The notes under the pieces: generated by a model
What the model saw: only the letters and a program-made list of their open reading frames with translations
Told to the model about the DNA's origin: nothing
The model's database searches: none
In this document: positions 19,282 through 58,697 of the stretch, piece after piece
Layout of the letters: each line of letters opens with the position of its first letter
Position numbering within the stretch: the stretch's first letter is position 1
NCBI GenBank assembly: GCA_905178155.1
Contig: CAJINV010000010.1
Coordinates: 1,571,182 to 1,635,181 of the forward strand
Direction of reading: 5' to 3'
Origin: Amoebophrya sp. A120
Taxonomy: Eukaryota; Protista; Dinoflagellata
Length of the DNA: 64,000 nt
Made by a program: the position numbers and the translations under genes

Positions 19282-20183
19282 AAGTAATTTTGGAATACAA
19301 ATTTTGAAGTCCTTTGCAGATATGTCGATGGCGTAGGCGTTCGCAATCGTATTACGAAGCTGTTTTTGTATACGACGTAGTGTTATATTTTCAGACCTGT
19401 GATAAATGACCTCCAACAGTACTCAAAACTAAGTTTTGCTATTGCTGGTATACCACCGTATCAACAAAGATAAAGAGATGATGAATCTGACACCTTGGTG
19501 ACAAGCTTTCAAATGTCTACGTGGATAATTTCAAATGAATCCTCGATGGGAAGGGTATCGAAAAAGAAACACTACACTCCTCGAGAAAATTGGTGATTGA
19601 AAGTATTTTTGAAGCGACGGATTGATACATAGATCACGCACTGGCAGCTACTTACTCGTGTTGCGCTTAGTACCTGACCTATTGAAGACTTTTTTTCTAC
19701 TCTCTCGAGCCTAACTCAGCTTGAGCCTGTGGCTTGCAGAACCACGGCAGAACGAGTAAGTCTGAATTTTCGCAAGAAGGTCATTGATGCATGATCAGTC
19801 TTTTGTGTTTCTTTCTTCCCGGAGCGATTCGCTGAGCCGTTTTGCTTTTTTTTCTGGTTGCGCAGCGAGGGCAAGAAGGCTTCCGCTTTTACGAGCCATA
19901 GAAGTATTTTCGCCCGCTTTTTCGTTCGAAATAAATCGGATCTTTTTTTTTTTTTGCTTGTTTGATGTTTTCTTATGGCCAAAGTCTCGTTGCTCCTGCT
20001 AGTCTGATCTGAAAAGCCTCGCACTGACCTGAAAAGTCCGGAGTCCACTTATCTTCAACATCTGTCGTGATGATCGAGGTAGTTGTTTTTTCTTCGGCTT
20101 TTAGTTCGTTGCTGCGTTCGTCAGCTTGAGCGGCCCTGCAGTGACAAGGAGCAGTTGTATTTGTAAGGTCAAGTAGCATCTAG

Positions 20184-21112
20184 TCAATAATACATGTCAT
20201 AAATGGCCTCCTTAGCATCCTTGCGAGGCGTAGACCCGGCCATAGACGGAGCAAGCTGCACCGTGATCCCGCCCATATTGGCAACCGCCAGCCAAAGCAG
20301 TCCCAGTCTCCCGAGTACAAGTGAGCCCAGCGTCCTGTTTCTATCAAATGTAAAAATGTCTAGGTCTGGAAGCTTGCCAGGTTTGTCTTGCATATTTTGG
20401 AAGACTCATGATGTCTGATGTCTGTGATGCATGCTCTAGCATGACAGATGTTTAGAGGCCTTTGTGATGCCTCTACCGCATGAGAACTGCCCTCTCCGGG
20501 TAGCACAAACTGGAGTTCCTTCGCCGGTCATGCAATGCAAATTTTTTTAGAATCCAGAGACAGCATCACAAGTTCAGAATCTTCCAGACCCATCCACTTT
20601 TGCACTTGATAGCTTCGCCTCCCGCCCGAAATGGTGGACGGCGAACCAGAGGAACTCTTGGTGAATTCCCGCATGACGGCACCGGTAGCGCTTTGTGGGC
20701 CGGCGCCCGGTAGCAACGAAGAACGCGAATCTGCAGCCAGGATCATTGATTTCCATAGAGGGCGGCTGTCTGCTGGAGTAGAAGCTGTAGCCGGAGTTGT
20801 GCAGCCCGTTCCTGATGTTGACCGACCTAGTGAATTTTCCACGGGATTTGATGCGGAGCATGGGGCAGCTGGGGAAGATGATTTTCCTGCGCAAGTTGGC
20901 GTGAAGGGGCAGCTGCCAATATCTTCTCTTTTTGTCAAGAACACAAAATTTTTGACGGGTGAATCTTCTAGCGGTAGTACTAGAAGATCATCAATGTGGT
21001 GCTGTATCCGGTAAAGCTGCACTGTCATCGATTTGATATCTTTAAAACCACGCGGGCAAAGAGGAACGTCCTCTAGGTTTTTGTCCACCATCAAGATCGT
21101 ACCATATTCCAT
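20184..21112 (-). CDS. Hypothetical protein (~217 aa, one introner); strand uncertain
   Basis: ORFs 20528-21112 and 20184-20393 join in frame after removing 20342-20611 plus DR. The + strand ORFs 20203 and 20631 also join, so strand rests on amino-acid composition only. Confidence 0.4.
20342..20611. mobile_element. TIR introner, family A
   Basis: tatcaaatgtaaaaatgtctaggtctggaag...cttccagacccatccacttttgcacttgata; DR gtttc/gcttc. Confidence 0.9.
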
Positions 21113-21527: not shown

Positions 21528-24500
21528 ATGGCGAAGTCGCCTTCGGTGGGCGAAGGGGCGCTCAGCGCTGGCGATGGTCAGCCCGTACCGGACCGCACAT
21601 CAGCTGCAGCTCCTTCCGGCGTTTTATCGACGCAAGGACAAATTGAATCAATAAAGCCGGCGCTTCTGCTTACCGCGGATGATCGTGAAGATTCAAGATT
21701 GCACAAGGACGAGGTTCTGGAGTGTGCGGACGCAGACGTGCAGGCTGCAGCTCAAGTCGGACCACAACCAGCAGGAGCCGCCTCGTCGATCTCCGGACCA
21801 GATGACACGAATAAGGAGATGATCAACCCCCCTACAGCATCTACATCTAGTGCCGATTTGCTACTGAAGGAATTTCTGACAACACTCGCCACGTACATTC
21901 TGCTCCCAGTTCTGTGTGCCATTGTCTCGGAGGTGCTCCGTGGCACGGGATCCTTGTGTCACCTGCACAATGGGGAGCTGCGACAGCTCGTCTGGGCAAA
22001 GAACCAGGACCAGCTGTCGGCAATGTCAACGACAACCGGTGCACCGACGTCGTCTCCTGGGAAGAACAGTAATGGCAGTACTTTTAAAGACGGCCGCGAG
22101 ATCGCAATCCCGGACAACAAATGGTGGCATATGACAACTAGTCAGCTCTACAACATTGCCGGAGAATTTTTGATTTGGTGGTATATTTACGGCCTGTGCA
22201 ACTGCTTTCCGGTGACAGCAGACGCGGGCGCTTCGTTTTCTCGGGCTTCTAGTCGGCAAGACGAGCGTGCTAGTGAGAACGAGTGCGACGGCGCAGGGAA
22301 GAACCAGAAAGATCTTTCTAGGTCGATGAAACTCACTTCCCCACCGTGTCGCGCCGTCACGTCGACAAACACAGCGACCGTAAATCCAATGCTTGGAAAA
22401 TTTTACCTCTACTACGCCGTTTTCTGTGCGTCGCCGATCCTGTTTGGACTCATCTCATATTTGAGTCTGGAGGCCGAGGCTGGCACAAACCCCGAGCTGT
22501 TTGTGTTCGCGTTCCTGTGGTACGCTCCCGCCCGAGTTCTCTTTATCGTCCTTCCCTTCACAGCTTTGGCGCACTACTGCTGCATGCCGAAGGGTCGTGA
22601 ACGGGCACCAGCTGGCGGATCTACAGCTTCCTCCTGCTGTAGCAGTTTCGATAATGATCAACAGGAGCATGATGCTGAAAAGAAGAACCCGGCGACAACT
22701 ACTTCTACTACGTCGCAAGTGCTGTTGAATACGAATCAGCTGACCAAACGGAGGATTAGTACAGGGGCGTACCGGATCTGCATGTTTGCTCTGAACACTT
22801 TCATCATCAACGGACTCACCATGTTCATTGTGACTGTCATTCCGCAATTGTTTGCAGTATTGCAGAAACAGTCCTTCGTCGTGAGTACCTTCGGGGAGGT
22901 GGTCGTCACGGGCATGTTTTTCAGCGTCTTCCTCCCAGCCTGTGAAAAGTTCAGCGGAGCGTACACCTTACCCAGGGTCAGTCCAACAGTGCAAGAGTTT
23001 GTCGACATGGGATACAGTGTAGAAATCGCGAGGAGAACTGCCGAAGAACGGCGCGCATTCTTGGTGACAGGGTATAACTACTTCTTCGACGTAGCTCGGT
23101 TCGTTTTCGGCCGCGGGATTCTGCTGAAGCTTTCTACGCATACCATCGCACTTGTGATTTTCCGAGACATTGTCTACCACATGTGGCATTTCGGCTTCCG
23201 GCAACAAGAAAGTCTGGTCCTGTTTACAACCAAAATTGGAGCGATGCAGCATGCAGCTGAAGACGACGAGGAACAAGCTCTACTGCAGAACTACATGCCA
23301 CCCTCATGGCAGTTTATTAGCAAAGTCTGCTTTCAACTGCAACGCATTTCGCAATTCAATAGGCACCTCTCCGTCGCGTTTGAACAGACATACGACTTTC
23401 GAGCTTCGTCGAAGTACGCGGAAGAAATTCTCGCGCAAGCGATTCCAACTTCTCAGGAGTACGGAACAACTGGACAAGAGCCTTCGTTTGGCAAGAAAGA
23501 CGCCACCCTTAAGAAGGCGAATGGGACTACTGCGACTCCACCCACTTCAAAAAATAAAACGAAACCGATCCCCTTGGACACCATTCGGACCCATTTCGCG
23601 AATATTCGGATTACGCTCCGCAATGTCCCTCGGAACGTGTGGCACCTCTTGTTTCACAACGATCAGAACTTTTCCCATGGTGCAGTGCAGGTGCTGCGAG
23701 ATAATTGCGAGGGTCCGGCGGGACAAAAGCGCGACGCAAAGTCGGGCGGGAGACAACAGGGCGAGAACAGTAGCAACGTTTTGCTCCACGACTGTGACGG
23801 CGATGAAAAAGCGATGACAATGGAAAAGGCTGCAGCCGGCGCAGCAGCTGCAACAACCACACGAACATCTTCTCCCTCTGTACTAGATTCAGAATTCATG
23901 CACGACGCCATCGTTCCCGGAACGACCGAGAGCCAAGACACCATAATGTTTGCAGCAAAGCAAAAATCTTGCGACTCGCGAGGCACCCGGTCAAGCGACC
24001 TGCGAAGAGGCCGGCTTTTTTCCCCACCAGTGTCGACGGCCGAGCTGCTTGCGTTCAAGGGGTTTACCAAGTTTTACCGTCAGCAAAATTTTCTGCGATA
24101 CCAGATCCGCATCCAAATTCGGCTCGTCGTTTCGCTCGCGTTGATACTGGCTCCCCTGGTGTCTTCCCTCACGAACGTCTACTACTCCCTCGGGTTTCCC
24201 CAAGATGAGCGGGAACTTTGGGTGAGTCTCATCGTCCCCTTTGTGTTCCTCTGTGAAGATTTGATCGAGTGGTACGTAGTCACGTTCCGGCTGACCTTAT
24301 TCAACCAGAAACAAGTCGTCGACTTGGTTCCGCCCTTTCTGCGGTTTTACGAAAAACGTCACCCGCTCGCTAGGAATTTTAGACTGGGTCTCATCGGCGC
24401 GTGCATGCTCTACCTCCTGCTTATGTTCCAGAACCGGTACCCGACCCTGAGATTCAATTTGGTCGACAAAATCGGAGCCGAGACGGGATGGGAGAAGCAT

Positions 24501-24551
24501 GAAGCGGACCTTCTGACCATTCCCGTTATCTGGGAATACTGTGGGTGGTAG
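21528..24551 (+). CDS. Intronless multi-pass membrane protein (1007 aa), family not recognised
   Basis: Uninterrupted ATG-started ORF with many hydrophobic segments (LATYILLPVLCAIV, FYLYYAVFCASPILFGLISYL, LFVFAFLWYAPARVLFIVLPF, LVVSLALILAPLV, LWVSLIVPFVFL, LGLIGACMLYLLLMF). Confidence 0.85.
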   Translation: MAKSPSVGEGALSAGDGQPVPDRTSAAAPSGVLSTQGQIESIKPALLLTADDREDSRLHKDEVLECADADVQAAAQVGPQPAGAASSISGPDDTNKEMINPPTASTSSADLLLKEFLTTLATYILLPVLCAIVSEVLRGTGSLCHLHNGELRQLVWAKNQDQLSAMSTTTGAPTSSPGKNSNGSTFKDGREIAIPDNKWWHMTTSQLYNIAGEFLIWWYIYGLCNCFPVTADAGASFSRASSRQDERASENECDGAGKNQKDLSRSMKLTSPPCRAVTSTNTATVNPMLGKFYLYYAVFCASPILFGLISYLSLEAEAGTNPELFVFAFLWYAPARVLFIVLPFTALAHYCCMPKGRERAPAGGSTASSCCSSFDNDQQEHDAEKKNPATTTSTTSQVLLNTNQLTKRRISTGAYRICMFALNTFIINGLTMFIVTVIPQLFAVLQKQSFVVSTFGEVVVTGMFFSVFLPACEKFSGAYTLPRVSPTVQEFVDMGYSVEIARRTAEERRAFLVTGYNYFFDVARFVFGRGILLKLSTHTIALVIFRDIVYHMWHFGFRQQESLVLFTTKIGAMQHAAEDDEEQALLQNYMPPSWQFISKVCFQLQRISQFNRHLSVAFEQTYDFRASSKYAEEILAQAIPTSQEYGTTGQEPSFGKKDATLKKANGTTATPPTSKNKTKPIPLDTIRTHFANIRITLRNVPRNVWHLLFHNDQNFSHGAVQVLRDNCEGPAGQKRDAKSGGRQQGENSSNVLLHDCDGDEKAMTMEKAAAGAAAATTTRTSSPSVLDSEFMHDAIVPGTTESQDTIMFAAKQKSCDSRGTRSSDLRRGRLFSPPVSTAELLAFKGFTKFYRQQNFLRYQIRIQIRLVVSLALILAPLVSSLTNVYYSLGFPQDERELWVSLIVPFVFLCEDLIEWYVVTFRLTLFNQKQVVDLVPPFLRFYEKRHPLARNFRLGLIGACMLYLLLMFQNRYPTLRFNLVDKIGAETGWEKHEADLLTIPVIWEYCGW

Positions 24552-25926: not shown

Positions 25927-28764
25927 ATGCGAAAAATCCGCAGTCCACCGCAAGAGCACCACGCTCCACCGGCACGTCCGTGGTGGAAGCAACACCTTGC
26001 GCGTCTCTGTGGAAAAAAGATTCTGTACCCGGGGGGCATCTGTCTCCAAGCAATAGTTGCTTCAGCTGTTCACAGCAACTACTTGCGAACGGACATTCCA
26101 ACGTTTATCAATGAACCGGATGAGCCGACGGACGCAACGGTACTTTAGGAGCAGGAAGGGATCATGTCAATACGTCGTGATATAGCTACTGGTGCATGAC
26201 CATGAGAGCAACATCGCTACTTGTTTCCGCGGTTATTGTTTCATACAAATTTGATAGAAAAAACCTCTTCATCCCCAGGTAATTTACCTCCACCCGCTCG
26301 GTGGCGGCGGAGGGCGAAATGGCGATCAGCAGGCCATGGAGATGTTTGAATGGTTCGAGAACAACCAGCAAAAAAAATTTGGGAACAACGGAGCTGCAGG
26401 AACCAAAAATTACAACATCAAAATCCTGGCCCCGATCGCCCGGACCAAGCGCTCTTCCGGGCGGAGTCCTAGTTGGTACCATTATTACAATATCCTGTGC
26501 AAAAGTATCGTACTCGTATTGCAATCATGCATTGCAAATCCTTTACCTGAGATCAATCCGCATTACAAATTTCATTTCTCATGCTGAGGAAATTTGTAAT
26601 GCATTTATACGAGTGCGATACTTATGCAGTTCATATACAATTACGATACCGAGCCGGATAATCGAGATATCGAGTGGACCGATGTGGAGGGAGCGACGTT
26701 GGAAATCGCGGAACTGATTCGGGAGGAGCAGGAGGACCGAGGAAATTTGCGGTACTTGCACGAATTGAAAGCACAACAACAGCGCGGGAGCGGTGGAGGA
26801 ACCGCTTCAGCTTCTTCCTCTTCAGGGGACTTCCATAGTCGACCAATGATCAATACCATGGGCGCTAATTTGGGCATCATAGGTCGTGGAGCTGGAGCTA
26901 CAACCTCTTCGTCATCTGCCTCGAGCAGTAGCGCCGCTGGTGGCCCCGCTAGTGCCGCAACAAGCACCGGACCAGTAGTTGCAACCACTACAGCGTCCTC
27001 CACGCAGACCAGCTCTACTCCCGCTCATCATGCGGAGCAAAAGCAAGATTCCCGACCCTACCCGGTTTTCCTCTGTGGGATTTCGCAGGGCGGGGTGATG
27101 GCCCTGCACATTGGGGTTGCAGCGGCGCTGTTGCACGAGAATCCAGTCATATATGCTCTGCAAAAGTATCGTACTCGTACTAATTGCAAATAGGCATGAC
27201 AAATCTTTTTCCGAAGTGAAAACAGAATTACAAATTGCATTTGTCGTGCTGAGCTAATTTGTAATGCAATTTTTACTAGTACTCCGATACTTTTGCAATG
27301 CATATCATACCCGCGGGGGTTATTTCCTACCACGCCATGCCACATCGACTGTCGGTGTCGGATTACATTATGCCTTTGATGAAAAATTGGCAGAACCGAC
27401 TTCTTCTCACCGCCGCGGAGGCAGCGAGCAGTAGTGGCGGAGGTGATCATGCTGCTGCTGCGGCATCTTCCTCGTCGGCAGGAACAGGAAGTGGAGTAGA
27501 AATGAACCATGTTGCGCAAAAGCAGGCCATCATTTTCCACGGCGAAGAAGATGCTGAAGCCGCGGCTCTGCGACTCCCCCCACCCCCGACGACCACTGTC
27601 CGCGCGATGTCGATCGACGAGGAGGATGAAAATGCTGCAACTACCGCTGCTGCTGCCCACATTGCGGCGCAACCGACACCGGCAGGGCAGGAGGCGGCGC
27701 AGATGGGCAGCGAAGATCAGGATGTGGGTTCATCCAACAACGTTACCATGACAACTGGCAGAAGTAGTACAAGCGGCGTTGCACCAGAAACCTCCGCAGG
27801 AACAACGAGCACGGGAAGTGTAAGTGAGCAAGATCTAGCTCGTCCGGCGTTTCTCGGACAGGATGGCTTTGAACATCAAGATGGGAACTATCCACAGTAA
27901 ATTTCCCGTACACGTACAAATGCAGTCTCTGCATGACAAAACTTGCCTTCAGTCCTAGTCTAGCATGACAAGTTGGACACTGCAAGTTGGCGAAATTTGT
28001 CATGCATTTTGTACATCATTTACGGAAAATTTACATTGCATAGGAACGGTACAGACCACACTGACAGTGACATACAGGATGTGGAGATGAATGAAGACGA
28101 ACCAGATCCCGAGGACGAAGAGGAGGATGGTGAGGACCGGCGACGCGGAAGGGCTGGTGCTCATCGAGGCTTTTTAGCCGCTGGGGGCCGGGGCGCGCCG
28201 GGTGCTAGAAGCAACACTTCTGGTGCACAACAACCGCCCCGGCGACCTGCTGGATTTGCGTTGCAGCCCGTGCTGGCTGCAGAAGGCGAGGACAGAGGTG
28301 GAAATGACGGGGAAGACATGGACGACGATGAGCAAAACCCACCGAATGCGAACCCAGAACATCAACAGGTCCAGGCGGCACACCCGACCACCTCGACTGC
28401 GAGCACCACACCGCTGAGCGTTCCTTTTCCGCCGGCAGCGGAGTCGGTCACGAATCTTCCTGGCTCTCCTACACGACCCCAGCAAATAAACGGTCAACAA
28501 CTATCCTCCCTTCCCGCACTAAGTTCCCCCTGGCGGCAGATTCCGGTCCGTATGTACGCCAGTAGACGCGACGGCATCTTTCCGGGAGATTTTGTAAAGC
28601 AGAAAGCGGACGACTTGTTCCTGAATAAGCTGGAAATGACGGACTACAAGATTACCATCCAGCCGGACAAACAGCACGCGGATCCGTCCGGACCAAAAAC
28701 GCTGGCGGAAAACATTTTCAACCTGCTGCGCCAACGGGACGCGGACGCAAAATTTTTACCGTAG
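25927..28764 (+). CDS. Phospholipase/carboxylesterase family alpha/beta hydrolase (acyl-protein thioesterase/LYPLA-like), ~743 aa
   Basis: Exons 25927-26139, 26279-26490, 26641-27151, 27310-27888, 28048-28764 in frame. Motifs ATVIYLHPLG (cf. ATVIFLHGLG), KILAPIA...PSWY, nucleophile elbow VFLCGISQGG, candidate Asp (ASRRDGIFP) and His (DKQHA). Confidence 0.85.
26140..26278 (+). other. Canonical GT-AG intron
   Basis: ACG|gtacttt...ccccag|GTA; removal creates the ATVIYLHPLG motif. Confidence 0.85.
26491..26635. mobile_element. TIR introner, family B
   Basis: tatcctgtgcaaaagtatcgtactcgtat...atacgagtgcgatacttatgcagttcata; DR tacaa. Confidence 0.92.
27152..27304. mobile_element. TIR introner, family B
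   Basis: tatgctctgcaaaagtatcg...cgatacttttgcaatgcata; DR tcata. Confidence 0.92.
27889..28042. mobile_element. TIR introner, family F
   Basis: tatccacagtaaatttcccgta...tacggaaaatttacattgcata; DR ggaac. Confidence 0.92.
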
Positions 28765-30652
28765 GCGGAGGGAAAAGGCTGTAGCAGTATGTGTACGAAA
28801 TAGAGTCGTAGGCAAAGCTCTTTGTCATGCGGCTGCACGGGACTAACAAAATGAAAATTCGCTTCAAGCAAGACTCGTGCTGTAAGATCTACTACAGAGT
28901 GGCTCCTGGTGTTACAGGAAGTAGGACGAGCGCTCGACGCAGATGACATTAATAAGAATCAGATGAAGATAAAGCCCGATTTTGAAGCAGCACTAGTAGC
29001 AAGAACTCGGGCGGTTGTTCTACACCAGGTCTACGACGCTATCCAATTTTGAGCCTCCAGTATCCTGGAGGACACAAAAATTCGTCTGTGTCTGTCTCTG
29101 TGTTTGCACCGAGGCTGCGGCGCTTAGGAGTAGATCTTTTTCATCATGGATGGTCGACTGCAAGTGGAAATACAAATAGAAAATGAAAGCATATACCAAT
29201 GAGGCTCGCCTCCTTTTCATCTCCCCACAACTTGTTCGGCCTACACAAAAATCTGATTATGCAGTGAGACTGCACGGATGAATGTCTTTCAACACTGGCA
29301 TAGCGGTAAACCCAGCAGCAGAACGTCCGGCCGTAAAAGCGCGCGTCGGGAACAACAGCGAGAGATCTACGACTGCGACGGTAACTTAGCGCTGCGCCAC
29401 TGCTGCTGTGCGCGACGGGATAAGGATGATCAGTAGGATCGTCTAGACTACGGTGAACAAGATGTTTTTTTTTTGTTTTGTTTTGCGAATGGTAACCATT
29501 TTACGCCTTAGCAGGCTCGCCTGTTTTAATACAAGAAGTGGCACGATCATATTAAGAGATGAGGTTACAGCAATAGTATTTGAAGAGAAGTCTTTTTTGA
29601 AAAGCAAATAGAGGTTTATAAGTGGGACCTCGTCCCCGGGACAAGGCGCAAGTAAAGATCCGAAAAATTTCAGCAGCAAGAAAATAAAACTTTTAGAAGC
29701 AGACTGGTCCTATCGTTATAGAAGAGGTTTTTATCTCCTTGTAAAAGAATCCTTATCTTATCCTTACTCGATCATAGTGCGCTAATTACCGTGGGAAAAA
29801 AAGCAGTAAGTAAAGGTAAAGCGAGAAGCGAAACAGACGAACTCACGAGGAAAGAAACTCTGAACAGGACGAAATGTTGCGTAGCCCGTGCGGTTTTTCC
29901 CAACCGCCCGATAGATAGATAGATAGAAACAGAATGCGAATGAGCAAAGTGATCGCGGATTCTATTTTCCTGAGAATACAGTGAAAATTTGGTTTGATTA
30001 CTTACAGCTTTCAAAAGTAGAATCGACACGGATTATATATCAACCTCTCTTGAGCGGAAGCGGTTTCCTATTCAAGATGACGAGGAACGTGGCTATTTGT
30101 GACGTCACAAATACCACAGACGATGACTTTTTTTGCGCTAAAACGAACAACTGCATTTTGGATGAATTGTAGCTGCGACGTGGAGGGTGCATGTGCAGCA
30201 ACTGCTATTTGATGCTGACGACCGAAATATGGGACGAGTCTTGAACGTCATAACCCTAAGCTCCTGCTTCAACTATAACACGTTCACGTTGTTCGTTTAC
30301 TGAGTGGAAAAGAATCTCTCACCGCAAATCTTAGTGGTGCAAACGCAGAGGGAAGATTTTGACTTTGTGAAATAACATCATGACGTGGAGAGACCATACT
30401 ACCAGGAGAGCAGAGTCAACAAGTTCACGAGTCTGCAACTGCGTTGTGGTCCTACGTGTTACCTCCAAGATCATCTGATATGTTTTTCTTGTTGAAGAAG
30501 AGCGCGAAGTAAAATATCATTGACGGGTAATTTTTACGGCGACGAGTCACAAGAAGTGGAAGAGGCTTCAGATCTTGATCTGCAAAGCCAAAATATAAGA
30601 TCCATGTAGAAAAGAATCCAAACTGTTTAGCAAAGAACGAAAGCAGAACCAA

Positions 30653-33606: not shown

Positions 33607-34754
33607 AAAAGTGGTGAAGTGAATTAATATGAGATGTAGCTAGTTGTTCTGCTTCTGCATCTGCTAGTTGAAGACATGCTCTTCTGTTTTCAAGCCTTTA
33701 TGTACCAATGGCGCAATTCACTCCTGAATTCCACTAACTTAATTCAGAACTACGATAGTGGTGCAATGCTGAGTCTATTTTTCCGAGAGAGGTTCACTTT
33801 TGTAGTTTTCAGGTTGCGTGAAACTATGAGGTTACCCGTACAACAAGAAGGTCTACAAACGCGTACACGGTTTTTTTTTTTCCGCTAACAGTGATATCGT
33901 CCGAATTTGTTTCACCGTTTAGAAGTTTCTGTCAAGAACTTTTATGGCGACGAAGATTTTTGCCGCGGCCTTCCATTCTTCGTCCAAGACCACTCTGAAC
34001 TTATTTGATTGATTTGCTACTGCTTTTGAATTGTCTGCTGAAAGTAAAACCACTACGACACAGCAAGATCACCCATTTCTCATGGGAGAAATCTGAAAAA
34101 AAAAATGATGTTATTTGGTTTGCGAACTTATTTCACGCACTGCTTTTCGAAAAATTCAGCCGCTTCTTCTCCAGACAAGTTTTTGCCATTGGTTCCGCTT
34201 CTGTGGGACCTTGACAGGTGGTGGAACGCGATGCGACTATAATCCGCGCGTTGGGAAAAGCAGTGCGACGCTGAAATTGGGCCGCTAGCAAGTGACTTAA
34301 GACAAAGAGCGACCAACAGAGCGAACCCTCTAAATGAGCGACGACGGATGTGTCTCTATCGTGAGAATAAAGAAAAATGTCGTGGAATAAGACAAAAGAA
34401 ATTATACGAAGAATATACTCAAGAAACATCTTCGAGTACTGTTGGGGACTGTCGCAGACATGTGCAAAATGCTTCGCGGGAGGACCGCGGGGCCAACGAC
34501 GCGCTCACCTGGTCAAGGTGATGGCGGACGGACAGGGCCGGCTAGCCCTGACCTTTTGATGTAATTAAAGGCAAAGCCTCTGCCACAGCCTTAATAGATG
34601 CAGTTACGAAGCCTGGAGTCGTCATGAAGATGCTGACTCCAGGCTGCTGCGCGTGCATTCAGAGGTCCACTGTGGCAGCTACCAAGCCTATCTGGGGGCC
34701 ATTTGGGTAGATATCAAGCGGGGGTGAGAGGGCATCGGGGCAGCTTTTTGGGTT

Positions 34755-34920
34755 GGTGACACGAGTGGTGACACGGGGCGGTGACACGGAGCCAAAAAAA
34801 TCGCGAATTTCGTGTCACCACGAGCTGTGACAGTCGATGGTGACACCAGAAATCGCCCCGGTGACAGCCGACTTGTGCTCCGTGTCACCGGGCTCGATTT
34901 TGAGCCCGGTGACACCAAGA
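34755..34920. repeat. Cluster of GTGACA(C)/GTGTCAC motifs in both orientations
   Basis: About 9 copies in ~165 bp (ggtgacacgagtggtgacacggggcggtgacacgg ... cgtgtcacc ... ggtgacacc). Confidence 0.75.
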
Positions 34921-35363
34921 GTGCCACCGTGTTTAGCTCTCAAACTTGGCCGAAATTATCGGAATCTCGGGAATTCTGACACTTTGGCGAATTTTTTGCC
35001 AAAAAGTCAGCTTTTTCCCGGATTCCAAAAAAGCAGAAAAGTGTCAATGTGGTTTGACTTGATAGGGTGGGGGTTGTGGGCGTGCCTAGGGCACAAACAC
35101 GCTATAGCCTGTTTAAATCTGCCCAAATGTGTGAGCTGTTGGGCGCCGCGTTTAGCCTCCCTGCGCCGGGCAGCCGGCCGAAAAGAAAACGACGCCAATC
35201 CCTCCACCCGACGCCTCTATATTGGCGATCCTTTCCGCGGCAAACTGCTCGCGTGTCACCAGAAAGTCACCACATACATTTCTGACGGGTGTCCAAGCTC
35301 TAAAGGACCGCGGGGCCAACGACGCGCTCACCTGGTCAAGGTGATGGCGCGACAGGCGCTGCG

Positions 35364-35776
35364 TCTTCTTCTGAACAAGCGAATACTGTCCAGCAAAGGG
35401 CGGAAATCGAGATGGGTGGTTCTATATGCACTGTAAATATGTCTGGGTCTGGAAGGATGCAACTTGCAATGCTGTCTGCGAATTCTAAAAGTATCTGTGT
35501 TGCATGAGCAGCAAGAGCAGGAGTCAGTTCTTGGCATGCAGAGATTGCGTTTCTCATGCGTGATTGGCATCAAGAAGGCTCTCAAAAAATCTGTGACGCT
35601 AGCACCAGCATCACAGACCTCACGGGTCACGCAAAATGTGCATGACAAGCTCCGATTCTTCCAGACCCAGGAGACATATTTGCATTTCATATTCTATGGA
35701 GCTGAGCGAGTTACCATACTTGAAAAACGTCATGAATTTGTATCAATGCAAGCCGCAGCTTCAGCCTCAGTGGGGG
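35364..35776 (+). pseudogene. Diverged fragment of the giant gene (matches ~18132-18340) carrying an extra introner
   Basis: aacaagcgaa.actgtccagcaaag.gcggaa...gagatgggtggttcta / tggag.tgagcgagttaccatacttgaaaaacgtcatgaa / tgtatcaatgcaagccgcagcttcagcctca are shared, with substitutions and deletions. Confidence 0.85.
35425..35691. mobile_element. TIR introner, family A; the homologous site at 18189-18193 is empty
   Basis: tatgcactgtaaatatgtctgggtctggaag...cttccagacccaggagacatatttgcatttcata; DR ttcta. Confidence 0.93.
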
Positions 35777-36266
35777 CAGCGGGCGTAACGGTACAACAGC
35801 AAGAGATCTACGACTGGAAATCGCGGAACTGATTCGGGAGGAGCAGGAGGACCGAGGAAATTTGCGGTACTTGCACGAATTGAAAGCACAAAAACAGCGC
35901 GGGAGCGGTGGAGGAACCGCTTCAGCTTCTTCCTCTTCAGGGGACTTCCATAGTCGACCAATGATCAATACCATGGGCGCTAATTTGGGCATCATAGGTC
36001 GTGGAGCTGGAGCTACAACCTCTTCGTCATCTGCCTCGAGCAGTAGCGCCGCTGGTGGCCCCGCTAGTGCCGCAACAAGCACCGGACCAGTAGTTGCAAC
36101 CACTACAGCGTCCTCCACGCAGACCAGCTCTACTCCCGCTCATCATGCGGAGCAAAAGCAAGATTCCCGACCCTACCCGGTTTTCCTCTGTGGGATTTCG
36201 CAGGGCGGGGTGATGGCCCTGCACATTGGGGTTGCAGCGGCGCTGTTGCACGAGAATCCAGTCATA

Positions 36267-36419
36267 TATGCTCTGCAAAAGTATCGTACTCGTACTAATT
36301 GCAAATAGGCATGACAAATCTTTTTCCGAAGTGAAAACAGAATTACAAATTGCATTTGTCGTGCTGAGCTAATTTGTAATGCAATTTTTACTAGTACTCC
36401 GATACTTTTGCAATGCATA
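36267..36419. mobile_element. TIR introner, family B (duplicate of 27152)
   Basis: Same sequence and DR tcata as 27152-27304. Confidence 0.9.
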
Positions 36420-37003
36420 TCATACCCGCGGGGGTTATTTCCTACCACGCCATGCCACATCGACTGTCGGTGTCGGATTACATTATGCCTTTGATGAAAA
36501 ATTGGCAGAACCGACTTCTTCTCACCGCCGCGGAGGCAGCGAGCAGTAGTGGCGGAGGTGATCATGCTGCTGCTGCGGCATCTTCCTCGTCGGCAGGAAC
36601 AGGAAGTGGAGTAGAAATGAACCATGTTGCGCAAAAGCAGGCCATCATTTTCCACGGCGAAGAAGATGCTGAAGCCGCGGCTCTGCGACTCCCCCCACCC
36701 CCGACGACCACTGTCCGCGCGATGTCGATCGACGAGGAGGATGAAAATGCTGCAACTACCGCTGCTGCTGCCCACATTGCGGCGCAACCGACACCGGCAG
36801 GGCAGGAGGCGGCGCAGATGGGCAGCGAAGATCAGGATGTGGGTTCATCCAACAACGTTACCATGACAACTGGCAGAAGTAGTACAAGCGGCGTTGCACC
36901 AGAAACCTCCGCAGGAACAACGAGCACGGGAAGTGTAAGTGAGCAAGATCTAGCTCGTCCGGCGTTTCTCGGACAGGATGGCTTTGAACATCAAGATGGG
37001 AAC

Positions 37004-37157
37004 TATCCACAGTAAATTTCCCGTACACGTACAAATGCAGTCTCTGCATGACAAAACTTGCCTTCAGTCCTAGTCTAGCATGACAAGTTGGACACTGCAA
37101 GTTGGCGAAATTTGTCATGCATTTTGTACATCATTTACGGAAAATTTACATTGCATA
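37004..37157. mobile_element. TIR introner, family F (duplicate of 27889)
   Basis: Same sequence and DR ggaac as 27889-28042. Confidence 0.9.
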
Positions 37158-39231
37158 GGAACGGTACAGACCACACTGACAGTGACATACAGGATGTGGA
37201 GATGAATGAAGACGAACCAGATCCCGAGGACGAAGAGGAGGATGGTGAGGACCGGCGACGCGGAAGGGCTGGTGCTCATCGAGGCTTTTTAGCCGCTGGG
37301 GGCCGGGGCGCGCCGGGTGCTAGAAGCAACACTTCTGGTGCACAACAACCGCCCCGGCGACCTGCTGGATTTGCGTTGCAGCCCGTGCTGGCTGCAGAAG
37401 GCGAGGACAGAGGTGGAAATGACGGGGAAGACATGGACGACGATGAGCAAAACCCACCGAATGCGAACCCAGAACATCAACAGGTCCAGGCGGCACACCC
37501 GACCACCTCGACTGCGAGCACCACACCGCTGAGCGTTCCTTTTCCGCCGGCAGCGGAGTCGGTCACGAATCTTCCTGGCTCTCCTACACGACCCCAGCAA
37601 ATAAACGGTCAACAACTATCCTCCCTTCCCGCACTAAGTTCCCCCTGGCGGCAGATTCCGGTCCGTATGTACGCCAGTAGACGCGACGGCATCTTTCCGG
37701 GAGATTTTGTAAAGCAGAAAGCGGACGACTTGTTCCTGAATAAGCTGGAAATGACGGACTACAAGATTACCATCCAGCCGGACAAACAGCACGCGGATCC
37801 GTCCGGACCAAAAACGCTGGCGGAAAACATTTTCAACCTGCTGCGCCAACGGGACGCGGACGCAAAATTTTTACCGTAGGCGGAGGGAAAAGGCTGTAGC
37901 AGTATGTGTACGAAATAGAGTCGTAGGCAAAGCTCTTTGTCATGCGGCTGCACGGGACTAACAAAATGAAAATTCGCTTCAAGCAAGACTCGTGCTGTAA
38001 GATCTACTACAGAGTGGCTCCTGGTGTTACAGGAAGTAGGACGAGCGCTCGACGCAGATGACATTAATAAGAATCAGATGAAGATAAAGCCCGATTTTGA
38101 AGCAGCACTAGTAGCAAGAACTCGGGCGGTTGTTCTACACCAGGTCTACGACGCTATCCAATTTTGAGCCTCCAGTATCCTGGAGGACACAAAAATTCGT
38201 CTGTGTCTGTCTCTGTGTTTGCACCGAGGCTGCGGCGCTTAGGAGTAGATCTTTTTCATCATGGATGGTCGACTGCAAGTGGAAATACAAATAGAAAATG
38301 AAAGCATATACCAATGAGGCTCGCCTCCTTTTCATCTCCCCACAACTTGTTCGGCCTACACAAAAATCTGATTATGCAGTGAGACTGCACGGATGAATGT
38401 CTTTCAACACTGGCATAGCGGTAAACCCAGCAGCAGAACGTCCGGCCGTAAAAGCGCGCGTAACGGTACAACAGCGAGAGATTAATCCTTGGAAATATCC
38501 ATATCTACCTGCATATTTGCAAAATGTAGCGAAAGGCAACCCGCTACCGGGCCTGCCATGTTTATTTTTCACGCCCGCGCCCGACGTTTTCGCGTCAGCG
38601 AGTTGCTAGGGAGGAGAGCGGAAGCCGGAGGCTCATTCTCTGGCACCGCTGGCGCAGTTAGTTGATAGCGAATACATCCTAGCGCTACCCCTTTGGCGAA
38701 GGGTCAGCCGAACGGATATGCGGCTGCACCAGAGCCGCGCGAATCCAGGCGCGCTGATTGTTTGCAATTCTGCAACTGGGCCAAACGCAGCGGCTGTAGC
38801 GCGCCGCAACTGGCTCCAGCCTCGCAATAGTGGCGGTCGGCAACTCTTTTTAGCGACCGGCGTGGCGTGTCGTCTTGCAATTTTAGGATGCGGAAAAGCA
38901 GGCCGCCAGCATTCGCCAAAGCCGGGCGCCATTCGTGAAAAGCCTCCAGGTGGCCTTCCGGCCAGCGCGCATGCACCCAAAAAGCGCAGCAAATCCGAGG
39001 AAAGCACCTCCACCGAGCGCTAGCCCACCGCGCAACATGCCTAGTAGCAGTATTTCGCTGAGCATGCCCCGCTGCTCCAGAAACTCTTGGCCGTACTTCA
39101 GCCGGGTCGCAAAGCACTCGCCCACGGTTCCGGTGCGATCGGGAAATACTGCCAGGCATCTTGGGTTCGCATAAAGATGTCGCATGAAGACCAATACCCC
39201 AAACAAATACCCCTTGAAGGAGGTACTTGCT

Positions 39232-39350
39232 GGGGGTATTCGTCATCGTTGTGCACCGAGCTGAGTCCAAAAATCCCGGGGGGTATTGATGGGGGTATTC
39301 GTACGGGGTATTGCTTTGGGGTATTCGTACGGGGTATTGCTTTGGGGTAT
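39232..39350 (+). repeat. GGGGTATT short-repeat array
   Basis: About 7 copies of ggggtat(t), including a duplicated unit ggggtattcgtacggggtattgcttt; inverted copies aatacccc near 39193 and 39207. Confidence 0.8.
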
Positions 39351-39384
39351 GCGTTTTCGCATTGGGTGAGCTTGGCGAAGGTGA

Positions 39385-39572
39385 AACGCGAGCGGGAAAT
39401 TTCCATCATTGCAAAATCCCAATTTGTGTTTCACCCAAACCCGAGCGGGGAATTTCCATCATTGCAAATTGTAGCTTGCCTCTCACCCAAACCCGAGCGG
39501 GGAATTTCCATCATTGCAAATTGTAGCTTGCCTCTCACCCAAACACGAGCGGGGGATTTCCATCATTGCAAA
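39385..39572 (+). repeat. 52-bp tandem repeat, ~3.6 copies
   Basis: Unit cccaaacccgagcggggaatttccatcattgcaaattgtagcttgcctctca starting at 39434, 39486, 39538, with a diverged copy before. Confidence 0.9.
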
Positions 39573-39894
39573 ATGGCGAGCGTCAATACTTTCAACTCCC
39601 CACACCGTCTGACTTCCAAACCCGAGGATTTGGCGGATGGCTGGTCGCCTCGTCAACTCCTACGCGCGCGGAGACATATCCAGACGAAGCCTGGGCGCAG
39701 CCTCGCGCCCAGGCTTCGTTCGGGTGTAGAAGGTGCGCAACACAGGGACGCCGCACGGCAGGCGGCTCCACACAAAAGTCAGAGCGCTGCTCCTGGCCTC
39801 GCCTGCAGCCCCACTCCCCTCTCCCTTTGGCTTCCCGGAAGGTCTCGGTCTTCGGCACTTTCTTTTGGCCAGTGCGGAAAACCGGGCAGCGGGC

Positions 39895-40515
39895 GTAACG
39901 GTACAACAGCAAGAGATCTACGACTGCGACGGTACCTTAGCGCTGCGCCACTGCTGCTGTGCACGGCGGGATAAGGATGATCAGTAGGATCGTCTAGACT
40001 ACGGTGAAGAAGATGTTTTTTTTTTTTGCGAATGGTACTAAACGCTTTAAGCCTTAGCAGGCTCGCCTGTTTTACAAGTGGCACGATCATAAGAGATGAA
40101 AGAACAGAATGCGAATGAGCAAAGTGATCGCGGACTCTATTTTCCTGAGAATACAGTGGAAATTTGGTTTCATTACTCACAGCTTTCAAAAGTAGAAACG
40201 ACACGTATTATATATCAGCCTCTCTTCAGTAGAAGCCGAGCTGATGACCGAGAAAATTGCGACGAGCCGAGAAAAGAGCCGAGAAAAATCAGCAAAAGCC
40301 GAGCTTAGATGCTGATGACCGAGAAAATTGAGACGAGTCTTGATGAACGTCCTAAGCTCCTCGGGGAGCATCATCGTTCAAGGCAGATTTTACGTGTGTC
40401 TACTTCAAGTACAACACGTTGTTCGTTTACTTCTGAGTAGAAAAAAATCTCTCACCGCAAATATTAGTGGTGCAAACGCAGAGGAACGAGTTTGAGTTTG
40501 TGAAATAACATGAAG
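39895..40515 (+). repeat. Diverged, internally deleted copy of intergenic ~29345-30385
   Basis: Shared blocks gagatctacgactgcgacggta.cttagcgctgcgccactgctgctgtgc, acagaatgcgaatgagcaaagtgatcgcgga, aatctctc.accgcaaat.ttagtggtgcaaacgcagagg. Confidence 0.85.
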
Positions 40516-42067
40516 AGGAGAGAGCATAATACCATGAGAGATGCTTCGCGGGAGGACCGCGGGGCCAACGACGCGCTCCTCACATGGTCCTCGTGATGGC
40601 ACGACCGGAACTTCTCCCGTCGTGAAAATGAAGGGATGTGGTATAGCAGTTTCTCGACGCATTGATAAAATACCTCCCCGGATGCCCCTGGATGACTCAA
40701 TTCATTTCTCAATCAAAAAATAGCACCCTGCTTCGATTTTTTCCCCCTGAATACGATAGCGGTCACTTTTCTGTATTTTCTTTCTAAGGGCAGTAGTTTC
40801 GATCGTATATCCCTCTGTAAGTACTTCATAGTGGGTGCTATATCGGCGGAAGGTTGGGGATTCCGGCGCTGCCGTTGGCATGTTTTTGAATTCATAAGAT
40901 TTTTCCTCTTCTTTGCAATTGGTAGCGAGGGGCTTCAAGGGGGTGGAAAGTGACGGACGAGCCTTGAGAATTTCAATATCAAGGGTGAAGAGAAGAAACA
41001 CCTTATGCCCCTTCTCTTCGGAAGATATAGATGTCGCACTTTGATAAGAAAGCAGAGGATGACCTCTAGTCCCGAAATTTCCGCTACCATGGGCAATATT
41101 TGTCGAAAAGCAGTCGCGTGTCTTCAATTTGCAGGTGCCTTGCGCGCTACCTCTAGAGATAATTTCCGTCTCCTCTAATCAGATTTTGTCTCTGAAGAGG
41201 GCAGAAAGAAGACCAGCTACGCTGACGAGAGATCCTAACTCGTCACGATTGCTCTTTCCAAAAATGTCCGCCACTGTCGTTCCTCGCTGATGGCCATGCC
41301 TTCCAATCCCCCTTTTTTTTTTTATCCAACAAAAAGCTTTGTTTTGGGCTAGTCAGCTTGGACGCCAGGGCACAAGGAGACAGGTATAGTGACACAGCCG
41401 CCAAGACATAGCAGAGGCGAATGGAGTCGAAGACAGCGCCAGCCTCTTGGGTGCCCGCTTTCTTTGCGTAGCAAGATCGTGCGCACCCTGGCTGTGTCTT
41501 CCCAAGCGTGACGGGGTGGAGCGATTACGTACCTACGAGGATGAGGAGCCTCGGCTTGCTAAAACATCATTGCGGACGGCCCCGCATTGATGTTGGACAA
41601 GTCCCGAAGACGCATGTTGATCACGTTGAACCGCGGCGGAGGAGGAGATGAGCAGAGACCTATCTTAATCCTCCTTGAACACTAGGATCTGCACTACTTC
41701 TCTTTGCTTATGGTTTATAGTTGATCTCATACAAAAAAAATGTGCAAAATGCTTCGCGGGAAGACCGCGGGGCCAACGACGCGCTCACCTGGTCAAGGTG
41801 ATGGCGCGACCGGAACTTCTCCCGTCGCCCCGCAACGACAGCGAGTTGATGACACGGTGGCTCGACCAGCTTCGGCGAAGTGGCTGGTCGTGGTCTTATT
41901 TTGAAAATAATGAAACTTGAAGGGGACGACGAGAGTGTTCTGGTCGGCATTTTGCGAGGACGTCGGGTAAAGAAACTCCATCTGGTGCACTAGCACCAGT
42001 TGTAGCATCATCATTATCATCCGTCGACAATGCAACATCTTCACCCGCCCTCACCGTAAGACCGACA

Positions 42068-45000: not shown

Positions 45001-48000
45001 TCTGGACAAGCAGGAGCTGCTTTTGATTTGCGCTCTTGATAGGTGAGCTAGTACATCCTTTTAACTGACAAATACTTATCAGACAGCCACAGCATGATCT
45101 ACATGTTTTTCTTTTTTCTGTGGTCACTTGCATGACGGTCATGGACATTGTACTATACACGCGACACTGACGCTCAGCATCTTCTTGCAAACCATATCAT
45201 TGCGGGTTAAGTACCACGGCAGTAGACGACGTATTCAGTGCAATGATACCTCCGTGCTAGAAGTGCTGGCATAACGTCCAGCATGATGAAAAAGAAAATT
45301 TGTAAACGCGGATTTTTCATACATAAGGAAGAGACCCGTAAATGCATCATGCAGCTTGTTGCTACGACTACGAGTGGGAGTGCAGCACTTTTGCACAGGA
45401 TGGTCGGAAGATTCTAACGATCCCTGTGTCAAGGCATGCGGTTTATGGAAGTGCCAGGTTTCAAATCGACAAAATGGACAGGGTTCGTCATGCCTAGAAG
45501 TCACACGAGTAGTTCGACGCTCTGTCATTTCTAAGCCGCGCGTGACAATTTTTTCATGTTGTAACCCTCGGGGCCTCGTGCTTAGCACCCTGCCATGCCT
45601 CCAAGCGATTCCATTGGTTTGTGGTATTAGCAAGCGTAGGCTCGTCACACTCGATAGCGTTCGAAGCAACGTAGCTTTTTGTATATTAGCCAAAAAATCA
45701 TGCATGACAACTACAAATGAATACCATTTTCATTTTGAAAATTTACAACTTGGCGCTTCAATACGGGAACAACGAAGAGTTCGAGAACTACGAAAAGTTC
45801 TGGAACCCGCCCTCGTCCGTGGACCTGAACGAGCACCTTTCGTTATCAAATGCAAATATGTCTGAGTCCTCTGGAACGTCGCAAGACTTGTCATGCAGGT
45901 TTTCCAAGACCCATGAGGTCTGGAAAAATGCGAGACCCAGCATGACAGATTCTTTGAGGTCTCTATCATGCCTTTCGTGCATGAGAAACTCTCTCTCGAC
46001 TTGGTCAAAAGCGGACACACAGATTTTTGCATCATTCAGATTTAGCATGACAAGTTTGAATCTTGTTCCAGAGGACCCAGACATATTTTTTGCAATGCAT
46101 ATTCGTTGTGCTGCAATTGGGCCTGGGCCGACGACGACCCTACTAGGCCGATCCGTTGCAAACCGGACACCTTGTTCAACATCATGCGGAGGAAATACAC
46201 TCGGGATGGTTTCGCAACCGCCTACAATGTGGAGGATTCACACTACTGTCTTCCCAAGGAGACCTACGAAACTTTCGACAACGATAACCCCGACGACAGA
46301 AGAAAGCTGAATCACATCCCGGCTTGCGCGGCCCGAGTGTTTGACCGAAGCAAGTGTAGTGGTGGAATCATGACGGCGGATTGCGAAAACAGCTGCAATA
46401 TGGATTGCAAAAGTATCGTACTCGTACAAGTCGCAATACAAATTTACTCCACAGAAGATGAAGGCGAACAAGTAGAAGCGGAGTGTGTCTGATTCAGGTC
46501 GTACTAGAGAAGATCTGTCACGCAGTTCTGCAAGTAGTACGAGTGCGATACTTTTGTAAAGGATACGCAACGCGGATCCGGAGTCTCGCTGCGAGTGGAA
46601 GAAACCTCCGACGACGACCACTGTATGGATTCCAACTGTGTCTGGGTCTGGGAGAATGTTGCAATGTTTGTGATGCAAGTTTTGCATGGCCCAGAAGGTG
46701 GGGCGTAGCATCTTCACAAGTTTTCCGGCAGCTTTTAAGAGCATAAAGCAGTCTGGTGCGTGACAATAAATCATGCTGTACAGCTTCAGTTGCTACTCAC
46801 GCATGACAGATTTTTGTGTGAATCACAGAAAGAGTTACTGGTTTATTGCACCTTTCCAGACGCAGACACATATTATGCATTTGATACACGCCGTGCGTCC
46901 CCCTGCCGTCTTCATATGGCACGAAAAAACTGCTTCGCCGCACTACACTTCCTGGTAAAAAAAAACTATAAGGGTATGTCTATGTCATGTGCATGCAGCA
47001 CATCAGTAGAAGCGTTTGTCTAACTCGAAGAATTGCAACGCATGGGAAAATCATTTCTCACTGAGATTTCCCTCATTGCGGGGCACGCTCACGCATGGTT
47101 GATGTTATGATTTGATGCCAGTGTTCCCCGTAAAGCAAGCGCGTGCTGTGCAAATTTTGCAAAATCGTCTTCACAGAAGTTGTGAAGTGAAACAGTTTTT
47201 CTGTTGGCAACTTGATACAACCGTGAGCGCAGATGGTGCATCACTTGGTGGGGTACCACCAGCCGAAATAGCGGAAAGGTAAAGGTTTCGTATACATGAT
47301 TCAGCATAGTAAGAATTCTTTTTTCTAGGATCTTGCCAACTACATGAGTAGTCGCATGATGCAGTTTGTCGAGCATATTGTGCAGGAGAAGTCGTATGTG
47401 AACGCATACTTCGATACTATAAGCTTGTATTGCATAGTGCACGACCATCTGCCGTGAGGACGAGGATCATGATATTCCTTCACCTTTGTCATGCAGGAAC
47501 AGTCTCGTGAAAACATCACCATCACAGAATCGACCTGTCGCAATCCACGAAGACCTGGGTCGAGTTCCTGAAGGAGCGATCTATGATGCCCAGCATGACG
47601 GAAGCGGACGCCGTATCGATGGATGACAAAGTCGTGTGCAACGAGGCCGCAAACTGGACCGGTGCTGTATCTTGAGAAAAAACTGTTTACAGTCACACAC
47701 CCTGATGCAAGACAAGCAAGGCAGACAACCTCTGTCATGCCGGAAATCATGCTTGCCACCCTCATTATTATTTCCTGCCTGCGCATTTTTACAACGAGCT
47801 TTCTTTGCCACACAGAGCAAGTTTGTGATGCTGAAATTCCACGACCAAGTGCGTAACTGTAACATTTTTTTGTATGGATATGCTGCTCCGAAGTTCTACT
47901 GTCCTAGCCCGGGCGGCGACGTCCAGATATGAAATGCAAAAGCATCGCACTCGTATAAATGAATCACAAATTTTCTCAACATGAGAAATAGAAATTGTAA

Positions 48001-57900: not shown

Positions 57901-58507
57901 TAGTTTATCCCTGTCGGCATCCTCCAATCCTGCACGACGTGCGGTAACTAGACAGAAAGACGAAACCGAATACGAAGAGCTTGAACGGCTGCGGCGGAAT
58001 GCGAGGAGGAGGACGAATTTAACGGTGGAGAAAGGAGTCGGACAGGTGTCGGTTGAAGGAGATGGGGCTACGCCGTCAGCAACAGGAATGGCAGACGCTG
58101 GACGACAAGTTGTGGAAAGACAACCGACACCGAAGCTCCTGTCCGGCGTCACTGACGAAAGTGCTGTCGGCAGGAAAGCAACGGGAGGAGGCGCAAATTG
58201 TAGTTCTACCGGAACAGCAGGCGTTGCTGGAGCCGGGAGCAAACATGTGCGTGTAAACAAAACGGCTGAAGCGGGTTGTACCAGTTCAGGAGCATCGGTC
58301 GTGGTTCAGCGGCAGTCCGGGATCGCGGCGGGAGATGGTACAACTCGCGGTGGGGGTGCAGCCGCAGCTACGGTTCGTTCCAATAACAGCAAAACGCGCG
58401 GAGAGCAGCTGCACGGGGTAGTTGGAGGGAATAAGACTACCGGGTCTGTTGTGGCCAAACCGAGAGAGGTGGCCACCAATCCGGGAAAGGTTTGGAGGAT
58501 GAAGTGA
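48948..58507 (+). CDS. Very large divergent eukaryotic protein kinase (~2,850 aa)
   Basis: Exons 48948-51545, 51703-53290, 53465-54798, 55039-55114, 55373-56360, 56527-58507 in frame. Subdomains YEVGELLGQGAYGAVF (I), YAVKEI (II), LFYELHCL (III), IHRDVNTRNILV (VIb), IVDYGSA (VII), and DIYALAVVAME (IX, formed only after introner removal). Confidence 0.85.
51546..51697. mobile_element. TIR introner, family B
   Basis: tatgaattgcaaaagtatcgtactcgta...tacgagtacgatacttttgcacaggata; DR tgctg. Confidence 0.94.
53291..53464 (+). other. Probable degenerate non-canonical intron (ends approximate)
   Basis: AT-rich segment with in-frame stop inside the kinase domain; weak IR gcaa...ttgagta / tactcaa...ttgc; removal gives APGLV-DFYLDITK. 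Confidence 0.55.
54799..55033. mobile_element. TIR introner, family D
   Basis: tatggcgttctcaaatgttacatcctcaactgttac...gtaacagttgagaatgtaacagttgagaatcccata; DR acgcc. Confidence 0.93.
55115..55367. mobile_element. TIR introner, family A ends with a different interior
   Basis: tatcaaatgtaaaaatgtctgggtctg...cagacccagacatttttacatttgata; DR gcctt. Confidence 0.93.
56361..56521. mobile_element. TIR introner, family B
   Basis: tatgcattgcaaaagtatcg...ctgcttttgcacaggata; DR gtgtc/gtgct. Confidence 0.86.
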
Positions 58508-58589
58508 GGCAATGCGCTTATGCGACAGTAGATGAAAAGATACAACGCATGCGCATCATTGAACAAAAGCGCAAGCTTTTGACTTCTGC

Positions 58590-58697
58590 GCGATGGACGG
58601 CATGTACATGATAGTAAAACAATGTGCAAAATAAACGACGAAACTCGCGATGGACGACATGAGAGTAAAACCATGTGCAAAAAAAACGACGAAGCTC
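58590..58697 (+). repeat. Two-copy ~55-bp tandem duplication
   Basis: gcgatggacg...catga.agtaaaac.atgtgcaaaa.aaacgacgaa.ctc occurs twice. Confidence 0.8.

Follow-up and report, generated by a model that had tools for sequence, protein, structure and literature searches.

The window analysed here, a stretch of 64,000 nucleotides from contig CAJINV010000010.1 of Amoebophrya sp. A120, contains one site in two versions, a single TTCTA in one place and, about 17 kb away, the same pentanucleotide on either side of 267 bp of further DNA. The pair raises the question of whether an insertion and its target-site duplication (TSD) can be read directly within one genome, and whether that insertion was the gain of an intron.

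Both places were read. In the empty version the giant gene on the + strand reads ...GAGATGGGTGG TTCTA TGGAG..., with its single, element-free TTCTA at 18189-18193 inside a 927-codon open frame (16498-19281). The filled site (35420-35696) consists of GAGATGGGTGG TTCTA, 267 bp (35425-35691), and TTCTA TGGAG, and its left (35420-35424) and right (35692-35696) TSD copies were placed by reading, by comparison of ends and by a scan for terminal inverted repeats (TIRs) with TSDs. BLAST of the window against itself aligns 35364-35425 with 18133-18194 (88.7% over 62 positions, E 2e-16), 35692-35736 with 18189-18233 (97.8% over 45, E 2e-15) and 35739-35787 with 18294-18342 (85.7% over 49, E 2e-9). The left and right flank alignments overlap by exactly TTCTA, and the homology of the two sites is therefore far beyond chance. 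These local alignments are the reliable ones, as a global MAFFT alignment puts the left flank in the wrong place. The first-pass annotation had proposed filled and empty versions of one site, and both the reading and the BLAST flanks bear this out; the homology, however, extends on the right to 35787, beyond the 35776 at which its range ends.

The left flank of the 35425 element ends in GGTGGTTCTA and the right flank continues after TTCTA as TGGAGC, with a copy-specific C at 35702. Strictly, the repeat at this copy spans 6 nt (TTCTAT), since T is both the first base of the element and the next base of the target; across the family the repeat length is 5 bp. The empty site is contiguous, with 0 differences, both in a DNA contig of run X1 (record 7, 16468-18233) and in an RNA-like contig of run X3 (record 13, 17191-18233). 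The empty site is paralogous rather than allelic, and it holds a single copy of the target, as MITE insertion predicts. The direct repeat is thus a true 5-bp TSD, as had been suggested, on the evidence of the empty paralogous site and of exact TSDs throughout the family, and the pair shows cleanly, within one genome, that insertion itself produces the short direct repeats seen at these unusual introns.

The inserted DNA is a 267-bp member of what we call family A, lies on the + strand and has no coding capacity; reading, BLAST, end comparison and scan agree on it. Its left TIR (35425-35455, +) runs TAT, 7 nt, AAA..., then GTCTGGGTCTGGAAG, and forms the basal stem with the right TIR (35658-35691, +), which is 3 nt longer through an internal insertion. 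The terminus is TAT GCACTGT AAA, and the right arm complements the left at 17 of the first 20 positions. Folded as RNA with its flanks, the element gives a long hairpin whose closing stem is made by the arms (-107.5 kcal/mol, z -4.46), and none of 200 shuffles folded as well. Window BLAST finds it 76-78% identical over its full length to 4032-4290, 5672-5926, 7722-7976 and 15902-16158, and about 68-70% identical to 16232-16489, 20342-20592 and 63438-63712. Its identity to the family majority is 0.77, against a family median of 0.773. Canonical splice borders occur in none of its 7 possible registers.

Family A has at least 8 full copies in the window, with TIRs of about 31 nt starting TATCAAATGCAAAAATGTCTGGGTCTGGAAG, and a ninth, truncated copy at 45844-46110. 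The 5-bp direct repeat differs in sequence from copy to copy and is exact in seven of the eight full ones. Besides the 35425 copy, these lie on the + strand at 4025-4290 (TSD GTTCT; inside the giant gene), 5665-5926 (TCCGA; TIR 20/20), 7715-7976 (GAAAC), 16232-16496 (AAAAG) and 63431-63712 (GGTCG), and on the - strand at 15902-16165 (AGCAG as read on the + strand) and 20342-20611 (one mismatch in the TSD). End comparison together with the scan delimits the 4025, 5665, 7715 and 63431 copies, the first three of these being marked by frame fusion as well, and end comparison delimits the 20342 copy; the 15902 and 16232 copies are missing from X4 record 21, an RNA-like contig. The terminus motif reads TAT CAAATGC AAAAA in family A and TAT GCTCTGC AAAA in family B. 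The family B element at 36267-36419 (+, 153 bp, TSD TCATA) is absent, with one TSD copy, from X3 record 15, and a family C element at 15377-15687 (+, 311 bp, TSD CGTCA) is absent from X4 record 21.

A scan of the window for TA...TA ends, arms that agree at no fewer than 15 of 20 positions and a perfect 5-bp flanking repeat found 25 elements in at least 6 sequence families, 145-311 bp long, all beginning TAT or TAC, with 15-20 of 20 arm positions complementary. Neither the reversed sequence nor any of 20 shuffles yielded a single element under the same scan. Irrespective of flanks there are 50 TIR pairs, 25 with exact 5-bp repeats, and most of the remaining 25 are nested within the same arms or are decayed copies with 1-2 mismatches. 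In three elements (5665-5926, 55115-55367 and 9966-10245) the arms are complementary at 20/20 positions and both share a variant, for example T for C at arm position 10, so that changes are matched on both sides within subfamilies.

The family A arm pattern was also searched in one public contig set, where it matched at least 143 loci, and 104 distinct full copies were delimited. None of the loci listed overlaps the window. Among the 104 copies listed, the TSD is exact in 91, has one mismatch in 11 and is worse in 2, the next 5 nt outward are exact in 0 of 104, and there is no target consensus. In the DNA-like run X1 the summed word depth, a rough measure, is about 90,000 over the TIR and about 27 on single-copy flank, which points to thousands of copies. 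The element boundaries TAT...ATA given by the first-pass annotation are accordingly upheld by the empty site and by exact TSDs in 7/8 full family A copies, 25/25 scanned elements and 91/104 copies elsewhere; boundaries and TSD are established far more strongly, and independently, by these family data than by the pair. The family of the 35425 element is an abundant MITE-like one, with TIRs, a fixed-length TSD, small size, no ORF and many copies. A transposase or integrase domain was found in none of 34 window ORFs (Pfam, sub-threshold matches only), and no cognate autonomous element with the same ends was found within the window.

That the elements exist in thousands of copies also bears on whether the filled site is real, as a chimera of giant-gene reads and an element from elsewhere might have been created in assembly. 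The site lies in a mosaic region beside a 99.8% identical 2.67-kb duplication, and DNA word depth is raised 3-10x at 34442-35364, both of which would suit such an artefact. Against this, X1 record 7, here a DNA contig of 136 nt at depth 36, spans 35324-35459 across the left junction with 0 differences, and the join specific to this copy (35707-35768) is found in RNA-like contigs, which continue through 35740-36266. The flanks, moreover, show at least 8 differences from the giant gene and are therefore not misplaced giant-gene reads. X1 may be the source data of the assembly and so be non-independent support. The first-pass annotation called for reads at both versions; X1 supplies the empty site and the left junction of the filled one, but no bridging contig for the right junction is among the longest pieces listed. 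On this evidence we regard an assembly artefact as extremely improbable.

The filled fragment was taken in the first-pass annotation for a diverged copy of the giant gene or a second haplotype. That description has to be abandoned, since the two sites lie 17 kb apart on one contig and the homology is a patch of about 160 bp within a mosaic of duplicated exon pieces. Three short blocks, all on the + strand, make up this total: 35364-35424 (equivalent to 18133-18193, 7 differences), 35692-35736 (18189-18233, 1 difference) and 35739-35787 (18294-18342, 85.7%). Between the second and third blocks the patch has 3 nt (TTT, 35737-35739) in place of 61 nt in the giant gene (18235-18295), and the frame is consequently shifted in the patch. 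Each form is present in RNA-like contigs: the 61 nt in one covering 18204-18323, TTT in one covering 35707-35768.

Other duplicated pieces adjoin the patch. A segment of 67-90 nt occurs in four places (34460-34526, 35283-35353, 40532-40622 and 41740-41827); the copies at 34460 and 41740 open with ATG and resemble gene starts, the latter preceding an 877-codon frame, and the one at 35283 is without the ATG. On the other side, 35774-35816 is identical to 39884-39926, and the 2668 bp from 35815 (35815-38482) are 99.8% identical to 26700-29366, including the same two elements (27152/36267, TCATA; 27889/37004, GGAAC). As both copies of this duplication hold the same elements with the same target repeats, it is younger than those insertions.

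The first-pass annotation also spoke of intron gain, and for the 35425 copy the frames and coverage do not support this. In the frame of the giant gene the 41740-like piece reads into the patch (...TAGPTTRSPGQGDGATG...SSEQANTVQQRAEIEMGGS / MELSELPYLKNVMN...) and meets a stop near 35786, and the patch frame differs from that of the downstream ORF at 35736-37876. After precise removal of the element, no + frame is open for 150 nt on each side of the junction. On the left flank X3 has a depth of 0 over 35294-35364, and the 2.6 over 35365-35435 is roughly the level expected from arm matches of other copies. X3 contigs do cover 35707-35768, the copy-specific join, and 35740-36266 with 0 differences, which indicates that the right flank is transcribed. 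The 35425 copy probably sits in a non-coding or decayed chimeric exon fragment.

Several further features of the window were recorded. Tandem arrays with periods of 13 nt (GGGGTATT... units) and 52 nt (four units) lie at 39190-39580, between duplicated blocks. A second possible filled/empty pair, 29556-29920 against 40099-40103, was rejected, as the extra 365 nt are without TAT...ATA or hairpin ends; the borders of this stretch carry short similar words (AGAGATGA), and the difference looks like a deletion between short repeats. G+C peaks at 0.62 in 58001-60000, compared with about 0.50 elsewhere, and overlapping ORFs with no Pfam match occur there on both strands. For the 1007-aa ORF at 21528-24551 no protein homologs were found.

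The sequence at 35425-35691 is very likely a copy of an abundant non-autonomous, hairpin-ended DNA transposon with a 5-bp TSD, which probably inserted after the fragment of about 160 bp had been copied. The earlier claim that gain or perfect loss followed the divergence of the two copies stands in part: insertion after the duplication is favoured, but two copies cannot polarise gain against loss, and the direction rests on parsimony, by which gain is the favoured event. A metagenome scan with the left-flank pattern gave 0 matches to filled or empty relatives.

Under perfect loss, the giant gene would have held an element at TTCTA when the fragment was copied and shed it later, for example by recombination with reverse-transcribed mRNA. 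RNA-like contigs of other elements are without exactly the element and one TSD copy, and as removal at the RNA level is exact, loss through cDNA would likewise leave a perfect empty site. The 35425 element is also of average age for its family (0.77 compared with the median of 0.773), and not obviously younger than the 7-11% divergence of its flanks. This course nevertheless takes two events, insertion and loss, where one is enough, and both TSD copies at the filled site remain perfect. The giant gene, besides, keeps at least 14 elements, including the neighbours at 16232 and 20342, and so gives no sign of cDNA-mediated clearing around 18189. Perfect loss is in our judgement unlikely.

The short copied pieces next to the patch suggest another course, in which the patch brought the element with it: repair would have taken up part of a filled allele or paralog (the element with about 60-100 bp of flank on each side) through template switching or as filler DNA. 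The patch measures just some 160 bp with the element at its centre, it abuts such pieces on both sides (35283-35353, similar to 41740-41810, and 35774-35816, the same as 39884-39926), and the surrounding region collects short exon fragments. With flanks 2-11% diverged from the giant gene, the captured source need not be that gene. Joint arrival does require a filled source, of which there is none in the window, and we consider it very unlikely, even more so than loss. Insertion after the duplication is thus the reading adopted here.

What becomes of such elements in RNA was followed in runs X3 and X4, whose RNA nature is a label by guess ('RNA?') backed by their behaviour. Their depth over the giant gene is 3'-biased, climbing from 0-3 in the upstream part to 25-28 around 18424-19571, elements stand at about 8x the depth of exons compared with about 4000x in the DNA-like X1, and their contigs match the window without differences yet skip segments. 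X3 record 15 covers 35740-36266 and its next letters lie at 36425, the family B element at 36267-36419 and one TCATA being gone. In X4 record 21 (2477 nt), letters 1-470 correspond to 14902-15371 and letters 740-2477 to 16496-18233, leaving exactly 269 letters between 15371 and 16496. This equals the 5+209+61-6 predicted if the elements at 15377-15687, 15902-16165 and 16232-16496 each leave with one TSD copy, 6 ambiguous letters being counted with the right piece. Precise absence is thereby seen at four elements (36267, 15377, 15902 and 16232), and shows that the unit missing from RNA-like contigs is the element plus one TSD copy, in either orientation and without GT-AG. Splicing from an internal GT-AG (the GT in GG/GTCTGG of the left arm with the CAG of the right arm, leaving 45 in-frame nt) was considered and rejected because of the exact 269 letters of X4 record 21 and the jump from 36266 to 36425 in X3 record 15.

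Reading frames agree with removal of this unit. When each element is deleted with 5 nt, 20 of 32 junctions keep a + frame open for 150 nt both left and right, compared with 6-7 of 32 in the wrong phases; deletion by +2 or +8 instead of +5 gives the same 20/32, and some of the 12 failing junctions have another element within 150 nt. Deleting the elements fuses frames of the window into ORFs of up to 1443 codons. The lengths of element plus 5 spread over all three phases, and a canonical register within the repeat exists for 2 of 26 elements (one GT-AG, one AT-AC). For annotation this amounts to a rule, that deleting the TAT...ATA hairpin and 5 nt restores the frame (20/32 against 7/32 at most in wrong phases). 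At element/exon junctions DNA contigs run through with the depth of a single copy (examples are X1 record 1, 4266-5688, at depth 24, and the 136-nt X1 record 7), so that removal takes place without elimination at the DNA level; a ciliate-type internal eliminated sequence is ruled out on the same ground, as bulk DNA contigs carry the elements at single-copy depth.

Two observations stand apart from this. X4 record 20 is without a further 124 nt at 14266-14637, beyond the element at 14004-14260; the sole candidate border pair is a weak GC-AG (14278-14401), and the gap may be a singleton non-canonical intron. In raw-read RNA runs, X10 and X11 have 0 reads on 34300-36400, and X10 to X12, which carry the same species label as the DNA run, have 0, 0 and 2 reads over 19 kb of the window; X10 has 2 reads on 3500-20700, both on an element. 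These runs may derive from a diverged strain.

A mechanism can be sketched from these features. A transposase or integrase making staggered cuts 5 nt apart in the target would carry out integration, and in the transcript the stem formed by the inverted ends would guide removal, setting the two TSD copies side by side. That the duplication stays at 5 bp from family to family speaks for integration driven by an enzyme, a notion doubted in the original description of these elements. The interiors of the families are unrelated, yet all share TAT...ATA ends and an exact 5-bp TSD, and this leads to a reading with a single enzyme. We put forward as a tentative and rather doubtful idea that one integrase-like enzyme, perhaps that of the Copia/Gypsy-integrase-like TIR elements reported from A120, moves all the families, and that the RNA machinery, offset by the same 5 nt, cuts where the hairpin has its base. 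Ty1/copia-type integrases typically yield 5-bp duplications, which would fit. If the idea is right, excision would be guided by structure, free of splice signals, and a mirror of the staggered integration cut in either orientation. In the accessible parts of the literature, Farhat et al. 2021 (PMC7789003) make a case against transposases as the general means of mobilisation in A120, and Gozashti et al. 2025 (PMC12130899) describe A120 introners as diverse transposons and report TIR elements in A120 with Copia/Gypsy-integrase-like ORFs.

The closest known system is that of Amoebophrya itself. In Amoebophrya sp. A25 and A120 more than 60% of introns are non-canonical (Farhat et al. 2021, PMC7789003), and the introner elements have inverted repeats of 8-20 nt, direct repeats of 3-5 nt over their borders and hairpin folds. 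For A120 the same source gives 29,850 repeated introns in 1954 families, amounting to 17% of the assembly, a mean non-canonical intron length of 240 nt, and an end motif of TAT, seven variable bases and at least 3 A. The window elements resemble these in their inverted ends, short direct repeats, lack of GT-AG, hairpin, length of about 240 nt, thousands of copies and many families. The terminus signature of PMC7789003 is present in family A, family B and the 35425 copy, and the 35425 copy has the inverted repeat (17/20) and the direct repeat (TTCTA) of the published introners. The host genes are alike as well, being without database homologs, as the title of that paper says. The difference lies in the repeats, which PMC7789003 describes as 3-5 nt long at variable positions, whereas in the window families they are a constant 5 bp abutting TAT...ATA. 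The accessible part of its text has no mention of empty sites within a genome, and three terminus motifs had no match in the one supplement of that paper that was searched.

Comparison with other lineages, as far as the cited texts are accessible, sharpens the picture. In Micromonas pusilla and Aureococcus anophagefferens, introners bring one canonical splice site with them and obtain the other from the TSD (Huff et al. 2016, via PMC11282704); like the window elements they are MITE-like DNA transposons with TIRs and TSDs turned into introns on insertion, but they are GT-AG introns, while in the window a GT-AG register exists for 1 of 26 elements and an AT-AC register for 1 of 26. Euglenid nonconventional introns (PMC11282704, PMC3935182) share non-canonical borders, inverted repeats that join the ends, TSD-like junction repeats and a suspected MITE origin. 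They belong to a lineage other than that of the elements' host, and their CAG/CTG at +4 to +6 and -8 to -6 (PMC11282704) is absent here, +4 to +6 being GCA in the 35425 copy and CAA in family A. The MITE-derived introns of Fritillaria and the introners of Polarella glacialis (PMC11282704, PMC12130899) are likewise insertions tolerated because they are cleared from RNA; they have recognisable, if sometimes unusual, splice dinucleotides, whereas every register within the 5-nt repeat of the window elements is arbitrary. PMC11282704 itself sets the Amoebophrya introners beside euglenid nonconventional and Fritillaria introns. Publications already cover the elements, how they are removed at non-canonical borders and their likeness to transposons, and the filled/empty pair is confirmation rather than discovery and opens no new kind of biology. 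The present results also show that the unit removed from RNA is exactly the element and one copy of its repeat.
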